From positions 1,440,001-1,504,000 of the forward strand of contig JASGJH010000001.1 in the NCBI GenBank assembly GCA_047601445.1: DNA of 64,000 bases. The letters run 5' to 3'. The notes under the pieces are model-generated. The model saw only the letters and a list, made by a program, of their open reading frames with translations, had not been told where the DNA came from and did not search any database. The DNA is from Myxococcales bacterium (GTDB lineage: Bacteria; Myxococcota_A; Polyangia; Polyangiales; DASUME01). Below, piece after piece: positions 11,369-20,733 of the stretch. A program made the position numbers and the translations under genes. Each line of letters opens with the position of its first letter. Position 1 is the first letter of the stretch.

Positions 11369-11917
11369 TCACGGCGTGGGAGCGGGCTGTGCGGGCGCCA
11401 GGTTCGGGTCGGCGCCAGGTGCGGCCGGGGCAACCGGTGCGACCACCGCAGGTGCTGCCGCCGGCGCGAGGCCTGGACCCGCGGCAGACTCCTTTTGAAT
11501 TTGCTCCGCGAGCCACTTCACCCAGTTGTTGTAGAGACGATGGATGTTCGTTCCGTCGTACTTGAGGCCAGGTGTCGAGTTCACGTAGGAAATGGAGTAG
11601 GTGGAGGGCGTGTAGTCCACGCGGATGGTGGCGCTGTGACCTCGCGACGTGGCCTGGGCACCGATCACGCCGGGGCTCTCGCTGAGCACCGTCCAGTGCT
11701 TGGCCAGCAGGGCGCGCATGATGATGGCGCGGGCATCCGCTTCGCTGAGCGGCTGGCCACTCACGGACACCAGCTGCGCGTTGTTGACGCTGAGCACGGG
11801 CGCGAGGGTCGCGTGACAGGCGCTGCTGAGCACGGCCAGCACGACGGCGAGGGCCAACGCGAGCGACGGCGGGAGCGACGAGCGCGGAGATTTCTGCTTG
11901 TTACGAAGGAGCTGCAT
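11369..11917 (-). CDS. Putative lipoprotein
   Basis: Lipobox LSSAC; YSISYVNS..LKYDGTNIHRLYNNWV motif of a conserved small lipoprotein family; start uncertain. Confidence 0.7.
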   Translation of the reverse strand: MQLLRNKQKSPRSSLPPSLALALAVVLAVLSSACHATLAPVLSVNNAQLVSVSGQPLSEADARAIIMRALLAKHWTVLSESPGVIGAQATSRGHSATIRVDYTPSTYSISYVNSTPGLKYDGTNIHRLYNNWVKWLAEQIQKESAAGPGLAPAAAPAVVAPVAPAAPGADPNLAPAQPAPTP

Positions 11918-12869
11918 GGCGTCGAGCATAGCGCTGCGATAGCCAGGCACACGCCATCAATTGCAGCTGATGGAAGAGCATCAACGGGACCACCAGCAGG
12001 CCCACGCTGGCTTGGCTGAACAGCACGCTGGCCATCGGGAGACCGCTCGCCAGGCTCTTCTTGGAGCCGCAGAAAACCGCCGCAATCTCGTCCTCTTTGC
12101 GGAAGCGCAGCGCGCGGCTGATGGCGGTGGTGAGGATCAGCACGAGGGCCAGCAAGACCGCATCGAGCGCCAACAACCGACCCAGTTGGGCCAACGAGAT
12201 TCGTTGCCACACGCCCGCTACGACCCCTTCGCTGAACGCCGAGTAGACGACCAACAGAATCGAGCCGCGGTCGACGTAGCCCAGGGCCTGCTTGTGGCGT
12301 GTCACCCAGGCGGAGAGCCATGGACGCGAGAGCTGGCCCAGGAAGAACGGCAGCAAGAGCTGCATGGCGAGCTTCGGGATGGCTTCCCCCGACATGGTCG
12401 TGCCTGCACGCCGCAGCATCAACGCCAGCAACATCGGGGTCACCACGACCCCGAGCAGGTTCGAGAGGGAGGCCGCCGTGAGCGCCGCGGCCACGTTCCC
12501 GCGTGCGATGGAGGTGAACGCAATGGAGGACTGCACCGTGGACGGCAGGGCGCACAGCACCAGGAAGCCCACATAGAGTTCTTCGCTCAAGAGTCCTGGC
12601 AAGAGCGCCCGCAAGATCAGGCCGAGCACCGGGAACAGCACGAACGTGAAGGCCAGCACGGTCCCTTGCAGACGCAGATGACGCGCGCCTTCCCAGGCCT
12701 CACGCGGCGACAGTCGCGTGCCGTAGAGAAAGAACAGCAGCGCGATGACGCCGTCGGTGACGTAGTCGAGGGCGGTCCCGACCCTTCCGCGGGCTGGCAC
12801 GAGCGAAGCCAACAGGACGCAGCCGAACAGCGCGAGCAGATAGGGGTCGATGCGGAGCTTGGCGCTCAA
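11901..12869 (-). CDS. Bile acid:sodium symporter family (YfeH/SBF-like) transporter
   Basis: LPSTVQSSIAFTSIARGN, FCGSKKSLASGLPM and PLMLFHQLQL motifs; TTG start at 12869. Confidence 0.9.
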   Translation of the reverse strand: MSAKLRIDPYLLALFGCVLLASLVPARGRVGTALDYVTDGVIALLFFLYGTRLSPREAWEGARHLRLQGTVLAFTFVLFPVLGLILRALLPGLLSEELYVGFLVLCALPSTVQSSIAFTSIARGNVAAALTAASLSNLLGVVVTPMLLALMLRRAGTTMSGEAIPKLAMQLLLPFFLGQLSRPWLSAWVTRHKQALGYVDRGSILLVVYSAFSEGVVAGVWQRISLAQLGRLLALDAVLLALVLILTTAISRALRFRKEDEIAAVFCGSKKSLASGLPMASVLFSQASVGLLVVPLMLFHQLQLMACAWLSQRYARRHAAPS

Positions 12870-13009
12870 CGTCCGTTCCCTCTTGGCGCTCGACCTGAAT
12901 GGTGATCCGCGAACTGCACCCCACGAGCGTAGCCAGCGGGAGCCGCTTCGGCACTTGACCGCCCGGGTTCCTTCGCACATCTTCCGCCAGTCACCAGCTT
13001 GGTGACCGT

Positions 13010-13180
13010 ACGTAGGGTGCCCTTTGGGGCTTAATAGGGAAGTCCGGTGCAACACCGGCGCGGTCCCGCCACTGTAAGCAGGAAGCTTTTCGTCAAGGTC
13101 ACTCGGGTCCCCCGGGGAAGGCGGCGAAAGCGCTGGGTGCGAGCCCTGTACCTGCGAGCCAGGAGACCTACCCCGTGCGT
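13010..13180 (+). ncRNA. Cobalamin riboswitch
   Basis: GGTG...AATAGGGAAGTCCGGTGCAACACCGGCGCGGTCCCGCCACTGTAA...GGGAAGGC...GAGCCAGGAGACCT (B12 box). Confidence 0.95.
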
Positions 13181-13311
13181 GGCAACTCCGCGAGGAAACG
13201 GAGCGAGGCCTTGGGCAGTCACTGGCTCAGTGCTTTTTGATCGTACGGTACCCTTGGTGGGTGGGTCGATCGCTCCTCGTACCGCGCGGACATGGTCCGA
13301 GGAGACGATGC

Positions 13312-14520
13312 ATGAGGCACCCGAAACTTCCCCAGGTTGGTTTGTTGCGCGCGTTCGCGTTCAGTGGCCTGTTGGCCACCGGCTGCGCCGGAGACGGTGA
13401 TCACGAAAAGGCCGCCGGCGATGGCCGCAGCATGGCCGAAGTGCTGATGAATCGCGCCTATATCGTGAGCCTCGAGTCGGAGGAGCTCACGGTGATCGAC
13501 CTCGACGCGCTCGAGATCGTCGGACGCGTGCCCACCGGCGGCGTGGAGAACCACATGGGGGATCTCAACGCGGACTACACCAAGCTCTACATCGACTCGT
13601 CCCACAGCGACGAGACCGTGGTCGTGGACCTGGCGCGCCTCGAGGTGATCAAGCGCATCCCCACGGGCAAGCACCCGTCGCACCTCTCGCTGCACCAGCC
13701 TTCAGGGCTGTTCACCATCATGCTCGAGGGCGACAACGCCGTCTCGTTCCTGGATACGGCGACCGATGAGATCATCAAGACACTGCCGGGCTTCATGACC
13801 CCCCATTTCGCCCGTTATTCAGCCGACGGCAAGTGGGGCTACGTGGCCAATATCGGCGCCCATCACATCTCGCGCCTCGACATGGAGACACTCGAGGTAG
13901 TCGACCAGATCCCGCTCGATGGCTTTGCCGCCAACATGCCCACCGGCGGCGAGGGCGGCTTCGCGGACGTGCAAATCGACCGCGACGGCGTGCTGCACGC
14001 AGCGCACGCGGATACGGGGCGCGTGATGATGGTAGACGCGGCCAGCGGGCAAAAACTCGCCGAGACCACGGTGGGACGGGCGCCCTGGATCGTGTACGCC
14101 GAGCATCCCTTCGACAACGTGCCCATGACGCATCTGGTGCCCAATTTCGGCGACCAGACAGTGTCGATGATCGCCAAGAGCCGCAAGGTGGTGGGCACCG
14201 TGGCCGGCGACCAGGAGTCCTACGGGGTCAACTACTCGTCGCTGAATCCGAACATCGCCTACGTGATGAACCGTATGCGCGAGGACATCGCCGTGGTGGA
14301 CATCGAGCAGGGACAGCTGCTCGAGCGCATCGCGGTGGGCGGCAACACCGAGACCGCTTCGACCACGCCCGATGGGCGCTACATCGTGGCCGCGGTGAGC
14401 GGGGCCAACCGCGTCGTGGTGATCGACGCGCGCACGCGCAAGATCAAGAAGATCTTCGAGAACGTCGGCAAGTACCCGTGGAGCGTGACGATCCCGGGTG
14501 GACAGAACTACTGCCACTAA
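13312..14520 (+). CDS. YncE/YVTN-type beta-propeller lipoprotein, His-rich
   Basis: Lipobox LATGC; repeated TVIDL..LE.V.RIPTG blades; ends GQNYCH; ATG 13312 after GAGGAG. Confidence 0.85.
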   Translation: MRHPKLPQVGLLRAFAFSGLLATGCAGDGDHEKAAGDGRSMAEVLMNRAYIVSLESEELTVIDLDALEIVGRVPTGGVENHMGDLNADYTKLYIDSSHSDETVVVDLARLEVIKRIPTGKHPSHLSLHQPSGLFTIMLEGDNAVSFLDTATDEIIKTLPGFMTPHFARYSADGKWGYVANIGAHHISRLDMETLEVVDQIPLDGFAANMPTGGEGGFADVQIDRDGVLHAAHADTGRVMMVDAASGQKLAETTVGRAPWIVYAEHPFDNVPMTHLVPNFGDQTVSMIAKSRKVVGTVAGDQESYGVNYSSLNPNIAYVMNRMREDIAVVDIEQGQLLERIAVGGNTETASTTPDGRYIVAAVSGANRVVVIDARTRKIKKIFENVGKYPWSVTIPGGQNYCH

Positions 14521-14552
14521 ACGCGCGCGTCATGGGGCTCGCGAGTCGAAAG

Positions 14553-17500
14553 ATGCGACGACTGGGCTGGGCTTGGCTCGGTTTGGTGGCCGCGCTTTGG
14601 TGCGGCTTCGCTCCGCGCACGGCGCGCGCGGAGACGTTGTTCGGCGTGGTGTCCGAGCGAACCGCACAGGTCGCGCTCAGCGCCGCGCAGCCGTTCCTTG
14701 GACGCCATCGGGTTCTATTGCGGACACCCGAGCAGGTAGCGAGCCTGAGTGACCGTGAGCTCGTCGCGCTCTGGCGAGAGGCCGACGCGCTGCTGTTCGC
14801 CAACGTGTTCGGAGAGCAGGCCACGCGCCTGACGCGCCTCTTGCGCGAAGGCGCCGTGAACCCGGCGATCCCCGTGCTGTGCCTGTCGGGAGACCCAGAG
14901 CTCAGCGCGGCATCGCGTCTCGGCGGACAGCGGGTGTTCGAGAACATGAGCACGGACGCGCAGCGCGCGCTGGCGGCGGCCCTTTCGTCGAGCGACCCCG
15001 AGGCCAAGCCCTGGCGGGTTCTGGCCGAGGAGAACCCGCGTCAGGCGGAGTGGATCGAGGGGGCCGCCTACTGGCGCGCGCGCTCGCCTGCCAACGTGAG
15101 CGCGTTGTTTGGGTGGCTATTGCGTCGCGCAGGGGCGGCCGAGACGGTCCCTGGGCCGCGCCCAGCCGAGCCGCTGCGTCTGCTGCAAGACGGCGAGCAA
15201 GCGCGCCTGACGTTGCCCCAGGCTGCGCCTGTGGTGGCGCTGCTCGACTACGACGAAGCCGAGGGCAGCGCCTCCCTGGCACTGCATCGCGCCCTCTGCC
15301 GAGCGATTCTCGCAGCAGGGCCTCGCTTGTGTGAGCGTGCTCGCGCGCTGGGGCCACGCGACGGCGCGCGCACTCGAAGAGCTCCCGCAGCGCCTGGCAC
15401 CGGGACGCTTAACGGGCCTGGTAGTGCTCCAGGACTTCGTGCTCGGAAGCGCAGAGGCGCGCGAACGCGCCAGTCGCGCGCTGGCCAGGCTGGACGTGCC
15501 TGTGTACAAGGCGCTCCGCCTGGTGGATCGCAGCGAGGCCCAGTGGCGGCTCTCCACCGATGGTCTGCCCTGGGACACCGTGCACTATCGCCTGGCCATG
15601 CCCGAGTTGCAGGGCGTGGGACAGCCCGTGGTGCTCGAGGCGGCGGAGCGCGTGCGCACCGATGCGGCCACCGGCCTCGCCTTTCGCCCTGCCCTGCCCC
15701 TCGAGCGCGAGATCGAGCACCTCGCACACAAGCTCGCGCGCAGCGAGCAGCTGGCGCGCAAGCCCAACGCAGCGAAGCGCGTGGCCATCATTTATTACAA
15801 CCACCCACCGGGACGCCACAACATCGGCGCCGACAACCTCGACGTCCCGGCCTCGCTGTGGGAGCTCCTGCGGGCGCTCAGGCGCGCTGGCTATGACGTG
15901 GACGACCTGCCCACGTCGGCCTCCGCGCTGCTCGAGCGCCTGCAACGCGATGGCGTGAATTTGCCCGAAGACCGCGGCGCACTCTCGGACATGGCCCCGC
16001 GCATCGCGCACGTCCCCGAGGCGACCTACGCACACTACTTCCAGAGTTTGCCGGCTTCCGCGCGACTCTCGGTGGAACAGGGTCCCCTCGCGCGGCTCGC
16101 CCACGACGTCGCGCTGGCCCAGCGCGCAGCGGAGCCGGCCAGTGCCCGCGAACGCGTGAGCTTCTGTCTCAAGGACATCCGCCACGTGCTCGAGGGCAGC
16201 GACCACCCGGCACGCCCGCGCGCGCTCGCGCTGTTGGCTCAGCTCACGGATCAGTACGACGCCTGGCTCGATGGCATGGAGACCGGCGTAGACACCCGCG
16301 GGAGCGAGCGCGAGGTGCAGGCGCTCACGCAGAGCCTGATCGCCACGCGCATCGAAGGCCTGACGGGTTGGGGCCCAGCGCCCGGGCGCGGCATGGTGCT
16401 CGACGGAAAGCTCCTCGTGCCGGGGATCACCTTCGGCAACGTGTTCATCGGCCCTCAACCACCGCGCGGCTGGGAGCTCGACGAGGAGCTGCTCCACGCC
16501 AACCTGAGCTTTGCTCCGCCCCATCAGTACCTCGCCTACTACCGCTGGCTACGTGAAGAGTTTCGCGCGGACGTGCTGATCCACGTGGGCCGCCATTCGA
16601 CCTACGAATGGCTGCCGGGACCGAGCGTGGGGCTCTCGCGCGAGGACTTTTCGTCCCTGGTGACCGAGGACTTGCCGAGTCTCTACCTGTACATCGTGGA
16701 CGGCGTGGGCGAAGGCCTCGCCGCCAAGCGGCGTGGCGGCGCCGTGATCATCGATCACCTGACGCCACCGCTGAGCACCACCCCGCTCTACGACGACCTG
16801 CTCGCGCTGCGACAGCTGGTGGAGAGTCATGAAGCCATGGGCTCCTCACCGGACACGCAGGCCGCCCGCGCGCGCGCCGTGCTCGCCATCAAAGAGAAGA
16901 TCCAGAAGCTGCACATGGAAGATGCCCTGCGCGCCAACATGGACAGCGAGCTCAAGCTGCGCGGCGTGAGCTTCAACGAGGTCAGCGACGAGCTCCTGGT
17001 GCACGAGGTCGGACACTATCTGACCGAGCTGCAAGAGCGCTTCATGCCCCACGGCTTGCACGTGTTCGGTCGTCCCTGGCAGCGCCCTGCCCTGCAAAAG
17101 ATGCTCGGATCCATCGAGGGCACGAGCGAAGCAGCACCGGCTCGATCCGCCTCGGCGGCGGCCCTCACGCGCTCGCCCGGGCTCGAGCTCAAGGCTTTGC
17201 TCGGCGCGCTCGCGGGACACTTCGTGGAGCCCGGTCACGGCAACGACCCCGTGCGACGCCCGGAGGTGCTGCCCACGGGCCGCAATTTCCACGCGCTCGA
17301 CGGCGGCCTATTGCCGAGCCAGGTGGCCTACGCGCTCGGCTCCGAGCTCGCCACGTCGGCGCGCGCGCAAAAGCCGGGCAGCGCCGAAGGCAGCGAGTCG
17401 GTGGTGCTTTGGGCCTCGGACACGGCGCGCGACGAAGGCGTGATGGTGGCCTTCGGACTCGACATGCTCGGCGTGCGACCGGTGTGGAACAGTCGGGGCA

Positions 17501-18876
17501 TCCTGCGCTCGCTCGAACGGCTGCCGCTCGCCGAGGGCCGGACGCGGCGCGACGTGAACTTCATCACCAGCGGCCTGTTTCGAGACCTGTACGAGAACCT
17601 GATCGTTTGGCTCGACCGCGCCGTGCTGCTGGCCCTCGATGGCGCGAGCTTGACGCTGCGCGCGGAGCATCCGGAGCTCGCACCGGCCCTGGACGCGGCC
17701 CTCGCGCCGCTCGGGGAACTGCGCGCTCCGGGGACGGAGAGCCTGCGCGAGAATCAGCTCGCGGCACACTGGGCCGAGCAAGCACGGGCGCTGAGCCTCA
17801 AGGGGATGCCGCTCGCAGCTGCCGGGCGTGAGGCCAGCGTGCGCCTCTTCGGCAACGCACCAGGCGGCTACGGGGCCGGCGTGAACAACCTGGTGGAGCG
17901 CTCCGGATCCTGGCAGGACCGTGCGCAGATTGGGAAGTCCTTCGCGCTTCGCATGGGTCACGGCTACGGCGCAGGACTGCGCGGGGCTCCAATGCAGGCT
18001 GGCTTCGAGCAGGCCCTGACGCGCACCGAGCACACCTACCTGGGGCGGGCCAGCCGCCTCTATGGCTTGCTCGATAACAACGACAGCTTCGACTACGTGG
18101 GCGGGCTGCGACTCGCCGTGGAGCAGCGCCGCGGCAAGCCGCCCGAGTCGAGCGTGGTGCAGTACGCCGACGCCCAGCATGCGCGCGTGGAGCCCCTCGA
18201 GCGCGCGTTGTTCAGCGAGCTACGCGGGCGCCACCTCAACCCGACCTATTTGCGCGCGTTGATCCGCCACGGCTACGCGGGCGCGCGCACGCTCAGCTTC
18301 GGCTTCGTGGAGAACCTCTGGGGCTGGCAGGTGACGAGCCCGGACCTGGTGAAGCCCTGGGTGTGGGACGAAGTGCATTCGGTCTACCTGAAGGACAGCC
18401 AGAAGCTCGGGCTCGCCGAGCTCTGGAAGTCCGCACCCAACGCCCACGTGAAGGCCAACATCGAGGCCGTGCTGCTGGTGGCTGCCCACAAGGGCTTCTG
18501 GTCGCCCGACGAGGCCGTACTGCGTGAGCTGGCCCAGGACTTTGCGCGCCTGGTGAGCGAAAACGGCCTGCCGGGCAGCGGCCACACGCGCCCCGATCAT
18601 CCGGTCATGGGTTTCGTGCGAGAGCGACTCGACGCCCAGGCCCGCGCGATGTTCGACCAGGTGTTGCAGCGGGCGCAGCAGCCCTCCTCGCGCGGACAGC
18701 CAGGTCCGAGCGCAGTGGCCGAGCTGCACCCGGATCCGCGCGAGCACGCCGAGGTCTCAGCGGACACCGAGTCGGGGCGCTCCATGTCCGGGCGCGCAGC
18801 GCAAGCCCTGGCTTACGGGCTGCTGACGGGTTGTGTGGGCCTGTTTTTGGCGGGTCTTTGGCGCGGAAGGACGTGA
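14553..18876 (+). CDS. Exported CobN/Mg-chelatase H-family protein (BtuS/HmuS-type); one apparent +1 frameshift near 15300
   Basis: Signal peptide MRRLGWAWLGLVAALWCGFAPRTARA; YYNHPPG, GPQPPRG, PPHQYLA, HVGRHSTYEWLPG, IIDHLTPP, LPTGRNF and NLWGWQ motifs; C-terminal TM; removing one base at ~15300 joins the two frames. Confidence 0.88.
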
Positions 18877-18879
18877 GTG

Positions 18880-19323
18880 ATGGGCGATAGCTTGGGCATG
18901 TTGTTGCGCAGCATGGTGCGCGGGCTGGAGGCGCCGGCCTTGAGCTGCTTGCTGGTGGTATGCGCCTGGGCGCTGTGGGAGGCGGGCCTCGGCCTGGGCG
19001 AGCGTCTGTCGGGGCTGCGTAAGCTGCGCGAGGGCAACGACCTCGAGCGCGTGCGCGACATGGGCCGCGTGCGCATCGAGCGGGCAGACATGTTGGCGCG
19101 CGTGGGTCCCATGCTCGGCCTGGTGGGCACGCTGATCCCCCTCGGGCCCGGGCTGGCCGCGCTCGGGCGCGGGGAGCTGAGCGAGCTCGCGCGCGCGGTG
19201 ACGGTGGCCTTCGACACGACGGTGCTGGGCTTGCTCGTGGGCATGTCGGGGTTCGTGCTCGGACGCCTGCGGCGCCGTTGGTACGACCGACTGCTCGACG
19301 GACTGGAGGCACAGCATGCGTGA
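18880..19323 (+). CDS. MotA/TolQ/ExbB proton-channel family protein
   Basis: GPMLGLVGTLIPLGPGL...AFDTTVLGL motif. Confidence 0.9.
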   Translation: MGDSLGMLLRSMVRGLEAPALSCLLVVCAWALWEAGLGLGERLSGLRKLREGNDLERVRDMGRVRIERADMLARVGPMLGLVGTLIPLGPGLAALGRGELSELARAVTVAFDTTVLGLLVGMSGFVLGRLRRRWYDRLLDGLEAQHA

Positions 19324-19618
19324 CCGCCGCCGCTTTCAGAGCCGCTTCGACGACTCCGATGCCGACCCGCTCACCGGTATGGCCAACCTGGCCGACGTGA
19401 TGCTGGTGTTCGCCTGCGGCCTGATCACTGCGCTCGTGATGGGCGACCTGCGCGCGAGCCCGGCGCGTGAAGGCGGCGGAGCACGCGTGCCTGTGGAACA
19501 GGGCCGTGAGGTGCCCGACCTGCCCCAGGGCGAAGGCGGTCAGGTGGCTGGCTACGAGTCGGTGGGGACGGTCTACCGCGACTCCAAGACGGGAAAACTC
19601 GTGATGGTGAAAAAGTGA
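19316..19618 (+). CDS. DUF2149 family protein (ExbD-like partner)
   Basis: DPLTGMANLADVMLVFACGL TM with Asp; C-terminal GTVYRDSKTGKLVMV. Confidence 0.88.
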   Translation: MRDRRRFQSRFDDSDADPLTGMANLADVMLVFACGLITALVMGDLRASPAREGGGARVPVEQGREVPDLPQGEGGQVAGYESVGTVYRDSKTGKLVMVKK

Positions 19619-19625
19619 GGACAGC

Positions 19626-20165
19626 ATGAAGGAAGAGCAAACAAGCGCGCGCTGGATGTTGGCTTCGTTGGTGGCGCTGCTGCTGGTCACGCGCCTCGCG
19701 CGAGAGGTCCTCGGGGTGCACTTGCCGGATGCCGCCGTGCCTACCTTCTTCTTGGCGGGATGCCTGGGGCTGGGCTCTCGCTCGCTGGCCGTTCTGCTGT
19801 TGGCCGCCGTGGGGGTCGACCTGGTGCAGTTCGCACTCGGCGCCAGCACGGCGTGCGTCTCGCCGGGCTATCCGCTCCTGTTCGTGGCCTACGCCGTGAG
19901 CTGGGGCACGGGCGCGCTCTGTCAGTCCGCCAAGCTCAGCTGGAAAGCCGCTGCTGTGCTGCTCACCGGAGTGGTGGCCTTCGCGCTGACCAGCGGCGGC
20001 TACTACTACCTCTCGGGGAAGTTCCCGCAGCCCGCGTTCGCCGAGTTCGTGGTGCGCAGTCAGCGCTATCTGCCCGACTACATGATCAATGTGCTGCTCT
20101 ACGCAGGCCCTGGCCTGCTGCTGGTCGAGGCCCTGCAGCGGACCGCGGGGCGCGAACGGGCTTGA
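19626..20165 (+). CDS. btuM: BtuM-type solitary S-component cobalamin transporter
   Basis: TR...HLPDA..FFLAG...D...G.STACVSPGY..L..AY...WG.G pattern recalled from BtuM, including the candidate axial Cys; last gene of a B12-riboswitch operon. Confidence 0.72.
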   Translation: MKEEQTSARWMLASLVALLLVTRLAREVLGVHLPDAAVPTFFLAGCLGLGSRSLAVLLLAAVGVDLVQFALGASTACVSPGYPLLFVAYAVSWGTGALCQSAKLSWKAAAVLLTGVVAFALTSGGYYYLSGKFPQPAFAEFVVRSQRYLPDYMINVLLYAGPGLLLVEALQRTAGRERA

Positions 20166-20274: not shown

Positions 20275-20733
20275 ATGGTGACGCAGCAATGGGCCCGAGC
20301 AGGCCGCGGGGTACTTGTGGGGGCGCTGCTCGCCCTGGGCTGCGCCATGAATGCCGCGAGCGCACACGCCGACGGCCTGATCTGCTCGGCACTCGCGGCC
20401 AGCAGCGCGGGCGCCTCGGAGCCGCCCGCCACCGCCACCGGCTTCGCCTTCGTGCGCAGCTACAACCTCTACCGCACCCAGGCCCGCCCGTGGGCGCAGA
20501 TCCCCACAGGGGCAGCCCTGGTGCTGCGCGCCCCCGAGCACACCACCGAGAGCGACCTCCACAACGCGCTACGCGGCTGCGCCAAGCAAGCCAACGCAAC
20601 CTCGCCGCTGTGCGTGAAGGGCTCGAGCTTCCGCGTGCGCGCCGACGGCGAGCTCTACGTGGTGGAGATCACCGGCAAGGATCGCGCGAGCGCCCTGGAA
20701 ATTCAGCACCGCGCTGCCAACCTGCGGCGCTGA
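20275..20733 (+). CDS. Hypothetical secreted protein
   Basis: Signal peptide ending AHA; strong GC3 bias; RBS AGGA. Confidence 0.55.
   Translation: MVTQQWARAGRGVLVGALLALGCAMNAASAHADGLICSALAASSAGASEPPATATGFAFVRSYNLYRTQARPWAQIPTGAALVLRAPEHTTESDLHNALRGCAKQANATSPLCVKGSSFRVRADGELYVVEITGKDRASALEIQHRAANLRR

Follow-up and report, generated by a model that had tools for sequence, protein, structure and literature searches.

The closest described relatives of the system considered here are the BtuS proteins, named in 2003 as a third type of CobN and linked to metalloporphyrin salvage (Rodionov et al., as cited in PMC6460266), the riboswitch-led hmu-like clusters noted in PMC10100974, and HmuS of Bacteroidota, whose catalytic His538 and second cleft motif (LSLDHxxEFMGG, which holds His1209) are defined in PMC12583661. 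The hmu papers assign the partner proteins HmuU and HmuV to a TonB-dependent receptor (PMC12583661, PMC10100974), and PMC13227078 allows only that they may affect HmuS. Here we examine an operon in a 64,000-nucleotide stretch of a Myxococcales bacterium genome (the window; assembly GCA_047601445.1, contig JASGJH010000001.1, positions 1,440,001 to 1,504,000), in which a cobalamin riboswitch is followed by genes for a propeller lipoprotein, an exported BtuS/CobN-like protein of the chelatase family, an ExbB-like protein, a DUF2149 protein, and a homolog of the B12 transporter BtuM (Table 1). The conserved unit is the riboswitch with the middle three genes (the trio), and this unit has already been noted in print. 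Two things are seemingly new: first, 28 of 38 trio carriers have no marker of corrin-ring synthesis although 35 of 38 have cobalamin synthase, which favors cobalt insertion into salvaged rings over removal, and the chelatase tail carries a conserved TonB-like motif; second, the His/Met-rich eight-bladed propeller belongs to a riboswitch-led family of its own that tracks ring synthesis.

To define what is conserved, we compared 116 chelatase loci (35 from genomes, the best 80 of 340 from metagenomes, and L053), 64 of them well-flanked with at least 3 kb on both sides; the set was not dereplicated, and neighbors were counted with small profiles of our own. The riboswitch profile, built from 13 Rfam-called examples, recovers exactly the three known sites of the host genome (G000) and none in reversed loci. 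Among the well-flanked loci, ExbB and DUF2149 genes adjoin the chelatase in 63 and a cobalamin riboswitch is present in 59; a check with Rfam confirmed the riboswitch in 7 of 7 loci, and in four others it gave only a weak hit for L046 and no hit for L024, L066, or L107. A TonB receptor occurs in 36 of the 64, with none within the fetched flank in the other 28, and TonB itself is matched in just 2. The trio sits among late cob genes (cobO in 22/64, cobB in 15/64), directly after cobB in L041, L080, L105, L111, and L122, and its frequent neighbors are receptor, BtuF/BtuC, BtuM, or CbiZ-like genes. BtuM is matched in only 3 well-flanked loci and the propeller in 1, and the two occur together in none of the 116 other loci, on which ground we reject the five genes as one conserved system. 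The five-gene set is instead a local mosaic, in which a BtuS-type trio that has spread horizontally is combined with a propeller of myxobacterial type and with BtuM. Within the host lineage the trio is rare, with full-length matches from 2 of 40 relatives and from 1 of 400 genomes of the phylum, and most carriers are, as labeled in their records, non-predatory Gamma- and Betaproteobacteria, so that lysed prey, which had been suggested as the source of the corrinoids, finds no specific support.

Several loci depart from or extend this pattern. A CbiZ-like amidohydrolase gene follows DUF2149 in L053 (12976-15137) and L046 (12665-15063), and also in L072 and L135; in L053 and L046 it is itself followed by a carbon-nitrogen hydrolase gene, possibly tying corrinoid trimming to the trio. 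L049 (11577-13297) is the sole well-flanked locus (1/64) without an ExbB or DUF2149 match; small open reading frames (ORFs) without Pfam hits follow its chelatase, whose tail does not have the linker motif described below. A subclade of loci labeled in their records as Ectothiorhodospiraceae (L028, L030, L043, and L044) has altered cleft motifs, Y-x-GRHSTREF and LDNDDGFDFQ, perhaps reflecting a different substrate.

The gene content of the carriers bears on the direction of the reaction. Of the genomes with the trio, 9 of 37 have a match to CbiC/CobH and 8 of 38 one to CbiJ/CobK, so that 10 of 38 have at least one of the two; the other 28 have no marker of corrin-ring synthesis. Genome incompleteness does not explain the missing markers, since cobalamin synthase (CobS) was found in 35 of the 38. 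CobB is present in 27 carriers, including 17 of the 28 ring non-makers, and CbiD was absent in the 5 ring non-makers checked and present in all 5 ring-makers tested. A ring non-maker would gain nothing by stripping cobalt when B12 is short, which favors insertion over stripping. Corrins do not readily give up bound cobalt, and certain purple sulfur bacteria, when grown without cobalt, produce corrinoids that lack the metal (PMC6771967). The first-pass annotation had left it undecided whether cobalt is inserted or removed; genome content now tips the balance toward insertion, and proton-driven periplasmic insertion of cobalt into salvaged rings, coupled to import, is the best reading we can offer, held tentatively and with somewhat less than even confidence. 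We also considered whether the exported protein could be the only chelatase serving de novo synthesis; CbiD in the ring-makers tested and CbiX in G000 rule this out.

To our knowledge, all characterized class I chelatases are cytoplasmic and driven by adenosine triphosphate (ATP), and the protein encoded here is predicted from its anatomy to differ on both counts. Its 1184-residue piece, the only part scored, falls below all nine NCBIfam CobN/BchH cut-offs, and its relatives score far lower than the genuine CobN/BchH proteins encoded in their own genomes. Relatives with an intact gene carry a signal peptide at the N terminus and, at the C terminus, a hydrophobic helix and a basic tail; 88 of 89 distinct tails have the helix. 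As judged from sequence, the chelatase is exported and held at the inner membrane by this C-terminal helix, and the signal peptide, the helix, and a conserved Cys pair together predict that its body faces the periplasm, a compartment without ATP. Conservation reaches 93-100% at the catalytic His and at more than ten further His positions. At the position of the second HmuS His, Asp is found in 27 of 27 relatives (LDNNDxFD), and CobN also has Asp there. The N-terminal alignment contains no conserved Met or His-Gly-Arg, although a profile of that region did not reach the HmuS structure (9d26).

The energy probably comes from the ExbB-like/DUF2149 pair. In the linker preceding the anchor, a motif of the form hydrophobic-x-E/Q/D-hydrophobic is found in 81 of 89 distinct tails, where shuffled sequences would give 16.6, an enrichment that is overstated because the pattern was picked after seeing the tails and the tails are related; the linker is otherwise variable, and the motif Glu is at least 90% conserved (alignment A3). 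DUF2149 has an invariant Asp27 (64/64 rows), which sits in the place of the proton-carrying Asp of ExbD and MotB. A monomer model of DUF2149, of low confidence (predicted local distance difference test [pLDDT] 67.8, predicted template modeling score 0.26), consists of a helix at 25-46 and a C-terminal hairpin, and a predicted complex in which the chelatase tail was paired with two DUF2149 chains scored 0.00 and is unusable for either side. In the TonB system, the D-box of TonB is captured by an ExbD dimer (PMC10907165), and the ExbB-like and DUF2149 proteins may similarly power the chelatase through its conserved tail strand. Alternatively, the pair could power a TonB-dependent receptor while the chelatase works independently, which is the stated model for HmuU and HmuV in PMC12583661 and PMC10100974 and would suit the 36 well-flanked loci with a receptor nearby. 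Yet the pair follows the chelatase in 63 of 64 loci, although 28 have no receptor in the fetched flank and only 2 have TonB, and DUF2149 is not needed for receptors in the host, since G000 already has 13 ordinary ExbD matches. The co-occurrence counts and these ExbD matches together fit coupling to the enzyme better than coupling to a receptor, and we regard the receptor model as very unlikely here. The earlier suggestion of a CobN-like periplasmic protein possibly energized by the proton-motive force is supported to the extent that the protein is B12-regulated, is predicted to face the periplasm, and probably draws on its own ExbB-like/DUF2149 pair.

The propeller lipoprotein has a different distribution from the trio. 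At least 573 homologs were found at E<=1e-20, the best 120 at 54-85% identity; the lipobox Cys is present in 69 of 69 rows, and the invariant residues include His59, Met60, His102, His143, His210, and Cys379 (numbering of alignment A5; add 22 for the protein), three of these His residues opening the inner strand of blades 2-4. A riboswitch lies upstream of the propeller gene in 15 of 18 other loci; of the remaining three, two are truncated by the end of a contig and the other is a second copy. Downstream, propeller-headed operons run into cbiX, cbiD, and cbiC in 4 of 16 stretches, BtuF/BtuC-like ATP-binding cassette transporter genes follow in 5, and PepSY-type genes in 3; a TonB receptor is near in 1 and the trio or BtuM in none. 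CbiC is found in 17 of 18 propeller-carrying genomes, and in a sample of 250 genomes of the class the 6 propeller carriers, from five families, all fall within the 9 with CbiC (Fisher p 2.6e-10, overstated by kinship). In the lone carrier without CbiC (G011), the propeller gene stands directly before the exported chelatase, as expected of a cobalt donor to an inserting enzyme, a single case.

Confinement to ring-makers makes it more likely that the propeller supplies cobalt than that it catches B12, and its fold lies nearer to heme-d1 and zinc-chaperone propellers than to BtuG. An AlphaFold2 model is confident and eight-bladed (pLDDT 93.9), and its closest folds are those of cd1 nitrite reductase (Z 37.2), NirF (33.5), and NirN (33.5), with the zinc-chaperone propeller AztD further down (28.2). 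BtuG, by comparison, is a seven-bladed DUF5074 propeller encoded beside BtuB; the BtuB1-BtuG1 entry ranks 30th (Z 24.8 against 37.2 for the best), although the propeller here does have a DUF5074 match above the cut-off over an 84-residue stretch (35.1 bits, cut-off 27.2). Its distribution and fold make the role of corrinoid catcher given to the propeller by the first-pass annotation doubtful. The protein belongs to a riboswitch-led myxobacterial family of its own that tracks ring synthesis and, with its invariant His, Met, and Cys, is a candidate cobalt-binding protein. An atlas search with it returned only generic YncE/YVTN clusters, and no published description of the family was found in the literature listings searched.

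The operon is one arm of a B12 regulon. The host genome is a single 9.5-Mb contig, 98.7% complete, with three cobalamin riboswitches. Directly behind one of them lies a gene for a TonB-dependent receptor with plug and barrel (G000:C1:8861646-8863994), and the third heads a cobalt-early synthesis operon running from cbiX to cbiA. The reported absence of a TonB receptor therefore holds at this locus and fails genome-wide, and the system is not self-contained, as had been proposed. BtuF- and BtuC-like genes, cobO, cobQ, cobD, cobU, cobT, bluB, cobS, and metH lie elsewhere in the genome; no match was found in G000 to the CobS ATPase (TIGR01650), CbiM, CbtA, or CbiJ. The cobalt-early operon (L054; G000:C1:4169103-4180155, minus strand) has the order cbiX-DUF3209-oxidoreductase-cbiD-cbiC-cbiET-cbiL-cbiG-cbiH-orf-cbiF-cbiA, and its oxidoreductase, which binds flavin adenine dinucleotide, is at a guess a candidate stand-in for CbiJ; the order cbiX-DUF3209-gap-cbiD-cbiC recurs in L169, L171, L174, and L190.

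How these parts might work together can be outlined. When B12 is short, the riboswitch would switch on this mosaic operon to secure cobalt and corrins. The propeller lipoprotein may bind free cobalt in the envelope through His and Met residues clustered where its central channel opens, and corrin rings would enter via the separately encoded B12-regulated TonB receptor. The chelatase could then insert cobalt into metal-free or wrongly metallated rings, with the ExbB-like and DUF2149 proteins as a small proton motor that grips the strand in the enzyme tail as ExbD grips the TonB D-box, doing for an exported chelatase what the ATP-driven CobST does for cytoplasmic CobN. BtuM, by homology, would bind the cobalt corrinoid through its Cys and import it for the late pathway in the cytoplasm. 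In this ring-making organism, the propeller probably serves cobalt supply in general. The most specific version, a class I chelatase driven by the proton-motive force in which ExbB/DUF2149 pulls a TonB-like box in the tail and a His-rich propeller chaperone delivers the cobalt to be inserted into scavenged metal-free corrins in the periplasm, is a speculative one that we think unlikely as a whole; if true, it would be an unrecognized salvage entry to B12, and HmuU and HmuV would be reassigned as the motor of HmuS.

A number of observations weigh against insertion and its proposed motor. The sole tested relatives, HmuS and BtuS1/2, remove metal from heme (PMC12583661, PMC6460266), and the C-terminal third of the chelatase is nearer HmuS (152 bits) than CobN (93 bits). 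Ten of the 38 carriers, this genome included, synthesize the ring themselves, by the cobalt-early route, and could find a use for stripped cobalt, 11 of the 28 ring non-makers have no CobB match, and insertion would presuppose a natural supply of metal-free corrins. The tail motif is shorter than, and different from, the published TonB D-box pattern, the periplasmic fold of ExbD is absent from the predicted DUF2149 structure, and the chelatase gene is frameshifted in this assembly. The nearest folds of the propeller bind heme d1, a tetrapyrrole, and its DUF5074 match passes the cut-off, so that it could still bind corrinoids, and the argument from G011 rests on one genome.

Two other activities have to be weighed against insertion. 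An HmuS-like de-chelatase might strip cobalt or another metal from imported corrinoids or porphyrins and so feed cytoplasmic B12 synthesis, which is the metalloporphyrin salvage proposed for BtuS, as the activity of the tested relatives and the C-terminal likeness to HmuS would suggest; the host, a ring-maker with CbiX, lacks a match to CbiM or CbtA and carries a propeller that hints at cobalt hunger. Yet the 28 carriers without a ring marker could not use freed cobalt for B12, Asp replaces HmuS His1209, no conserved Met or His-Gly-Arg is seen in the head and neck (a region that did not align to 9d26), and cobalt corrins, as noted above, resist demetallation; de-chelation is plausible for ring-makers such as the host but unlikely overall. 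The CobN-like protein might instead be a non-catalytic relay that binds periplasmic corrinoids, with the motor helping it to release or remodel them or to hand them to BtuM or BtuCDF. Such a relay would fit ring non-makers as well as insertion does, would require no rare substrate, and agrees with the frequency of receptor, BtuF/BtuC, BtuM, or CbiZ-like neighbors, but the strict conservation of the catalytic His and the other His residues suggests metal chemistry, and a motor-coupled protein of 1450 residues would be a costly way to do the job of BtuF; we consider it still less probable than de-chelation. If cobalt is indeed inserted, many bacteria now read as simple salvagers of B12 or cobinamide could finish cobalt-free rings leaked by cobalt-starved neighbors, and the reading of B12 cross-feeding from genomes would change. 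An exported chelatase with a proton motor, if true, would mean that tetrapyrrole metal chemistry can be driven in a new way, and the membrane requirement of HmuS turnover would then be explained. The propeller family is a concrete candidate for cobalt acquisition in myxobacterial B12 producers without a CbiM or CbtA match.

The chelatase gene is not one open frame in this assembly, whereas its relatives are single frames of 1430-1630 residues, including intact ones that are 49-70% identical. Over their full length, the two pieces can be aligned with one intact relative (52% and 69% identity), and the changes between them and that relative are biased to third positions. A control set of 228 ORFs, taken from 20 stretches of G009 and from L018, was compared with this assembly; of 67 usable orthologs, 5 contain a frame change or stop, the chelatase being one (4 of the 66 others). 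Breaks thus occur at a background of several percent in this assembly, which makes an assembly error likely, though unproven, and a sequencing or assembly error is the most likely cause of the break. The gene could alternatively be a real and recent pseudogene in this organism, leaving an operon that now supplies only the propeller and BtuM: the frame change is there, the trio is patchy in the lineage, and the organism makes its own corrin ring. Against this, the break is the only one and falls at a short G run, conservation in both pieces is still biased by codon position, no key motif has been lost, other genes of the assembly are broken too, and hmuS was likewise wrongly frameshifted in its first assembly. 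A pseudogene is in our view improbable, a judgment that stands apart from those on insertion, de-chelation, a relay, and a motor for receptors. The chelatase is also split in two other assemblies, in L048 (8001-11322) over three frames and in L050 by an inverted middle segment.

Two further claims of the first-pass annotation stand: the riboswitch is followed by five tightly packed co-directional genes (gaps of 11, 3, -8, and 7 nucleotides), and the last encodes a BtuM homolog. This homolog retains the cobalt-binding Cys. The match to PDB 8c7p spans 153 residues, although the Pfam scan gave no hit, and equivalents of Cys80, Asp67, Tyr85, and Arg153 are kept while His28 is Arg; the Cys is described as essential in BtuM in PMC6072759, from which the residues compared here are taken. 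The mode of riboswitch control can be suggested only tentatively, since neither hairpin of the expression platform stands out from chance (2 terminator-like sites, with 3.0 in shuffled sequence; folding z -1.07), and a promoter scan found none. Elsewhere in the window, a gene for an SBF-like transporter (11901-12869, minus strand) is divergent from the cobalamin riboswitch, an exported-looking, Cys-containing ORF of 152 residues without a family (20275-20733, plus strand) begins 109 nucleotides after BtuM, and a ZMP/ZTP riboswitch (RF01750; 43.1 bits, cut-off 39) lies at 2458-2582 on the minus strand.

Table 1. Features of the B12-riboswitch operon, with positions in the window.
Feature	Position	Strand	Evidence or remark
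Cobalamin riboswitch aptamer (RF00174)	12998..13189	+	Rfam 101.9 bits, cut-off 31.5, E 2.4e-24, full model
Putative expression platform	13190..13311	+	Terminator-like hairpin ~13211-13238; another hairpin, predicted to pair with the ribosome site (GAGGAG) of gene 1
Eight-bladed YVTN/YncE-type propeller lipoprotein, 402 residues	13312..14520	+	Pfam YNCE and DUF5074
Exported BtuS/CobN-like chelatase-family gene, signal peptide and C-terminal membrane anchor	14532..18876	+	PF02514, 760 bits on the 3' piece
Frame change within the chelatase gene, short G run	15318..15322 (approximate)	+	Three-frame translation and guanine-cytosine frame plot
Superfamily catalytic His (GRHSTYE), equivalent by motif to HmuS His538	16594..16596	+	27/27 intact relatives and the window piece
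Asp at the position of the second HmuS axial His (His1209)	18082..18084	+	Alignments to 9d26, 9fpc, and 9uk9
Conserved linker motif P-S-A-V-A-E-L, candidate motor box	18706..18726	+	Between enzyme body and membrane anchor
MotA/TolQ/ExbB-family proton-channel subunit (HmuU-like), 147 residues	18880..19323	+	PF01618, 33.4 bits, cut-off 22.9
DUF2149 protein (HmuV-like), one membrane helix with invariant Asp27	19316..19618	+	PF09919, 34.7 bits, cut-off 27.1
BtuM-family B12 transporter homolog, 179 residues	19626..20165	+	PDB 8c7p, E 6e-14

Among known systems, the operon stands nearest to the BtuS family and the hmu-like clusters, with which it shares a PF02514 protein distinct from CobN and ChlH, its export, the ExbB-like and DUF2149 partners, the cobalamin riboswitch, and a predicted role in salvage; it differs in that no HmuT/DUF2162-like gene was seen in the operon, the receptor is encoded elsewhere, and the trio is joined to a myxobacterial propeller and BtuM. 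B12-linked chelatase chemistry was not found in the literature searched, although the subfamily may already have been placed in Dataset EV4 of PMC12583661 and in the regulon files of PMC3766115; BtuS was not found by term searches in PMC3766115, PMC8123684, and PMC12204202, nor DUF2149 where it was searched for. With the HmuS-HmuU-HmuV proteins of the Bacteroidota hmuYRSTUV locus (B. thetaiotaomicron HmuS, 9d26; PMC12583661, PMC13227078), the chelatase and its partners share superfamily and size, a periplasm-facing body, the catalytic His, and ExbB-like and DUF2149 proteins. Unlike that iron-regulated system, the operon here is B12-regulated, has no receptor, HmuY, or HmuT family match among its five genes, and encodes a chelatase with Asp in place of His1209 and no evident Met79/His254 site; HmuS is described with an N-terminal anchor, whereas this chelatase has a C-terminal helix and a conserved linker motif.

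The class I cobaltochelatase CobNST (7c6o, 9uk9; PMC7689651) has a homologous large subunit with Asp in the second cleft motif, and the chelatase genes described here often lie beside cobB and cobO. In contrast to CobN, however, the chelatase is exported and membrane-anchored, the genome has no match to the CobS ATPase, and the exported form occurs mostly in genomes without ring synthesis, the ring-makers tested using the cobalt-early route. TonB and TolA, with ExbBD and TolQR (D-box, PMC10907165; motor box, PMC12204202), likewise combine a membrane helix with a flexible linker that carries one short conserved hydrophobic/polar strand, and work beside a protein of ExbB type whose partner bears an Asp. 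The chelatase, however, is anchored at its C terminus, an inverted topology, its motor would act on an enzyme, the motif is shorter and of another form, and DUF2149 is modeled without the ExbD fold. The BtuM of Thiobacillus denitrificans (PMC6072759) shares with the window homolog the sequence match and the four residues named above; the homolog is shorter and has Arg for His28, and BtuM is usually linked to btuB rather than to a chelatase. Finally, the propeller is exported, as are the cd1/NirF/NirN, AztD, and BtuG propellers, and NirF and BtuG are also lipoproteins, but it is only 12-16% identical to these proteins, has its own invariant His/Met set and a C-terminal YCH, and is linked to B12 ring synthesis rather than to denitrification, zinc uptake, or a neighboring BtuB.

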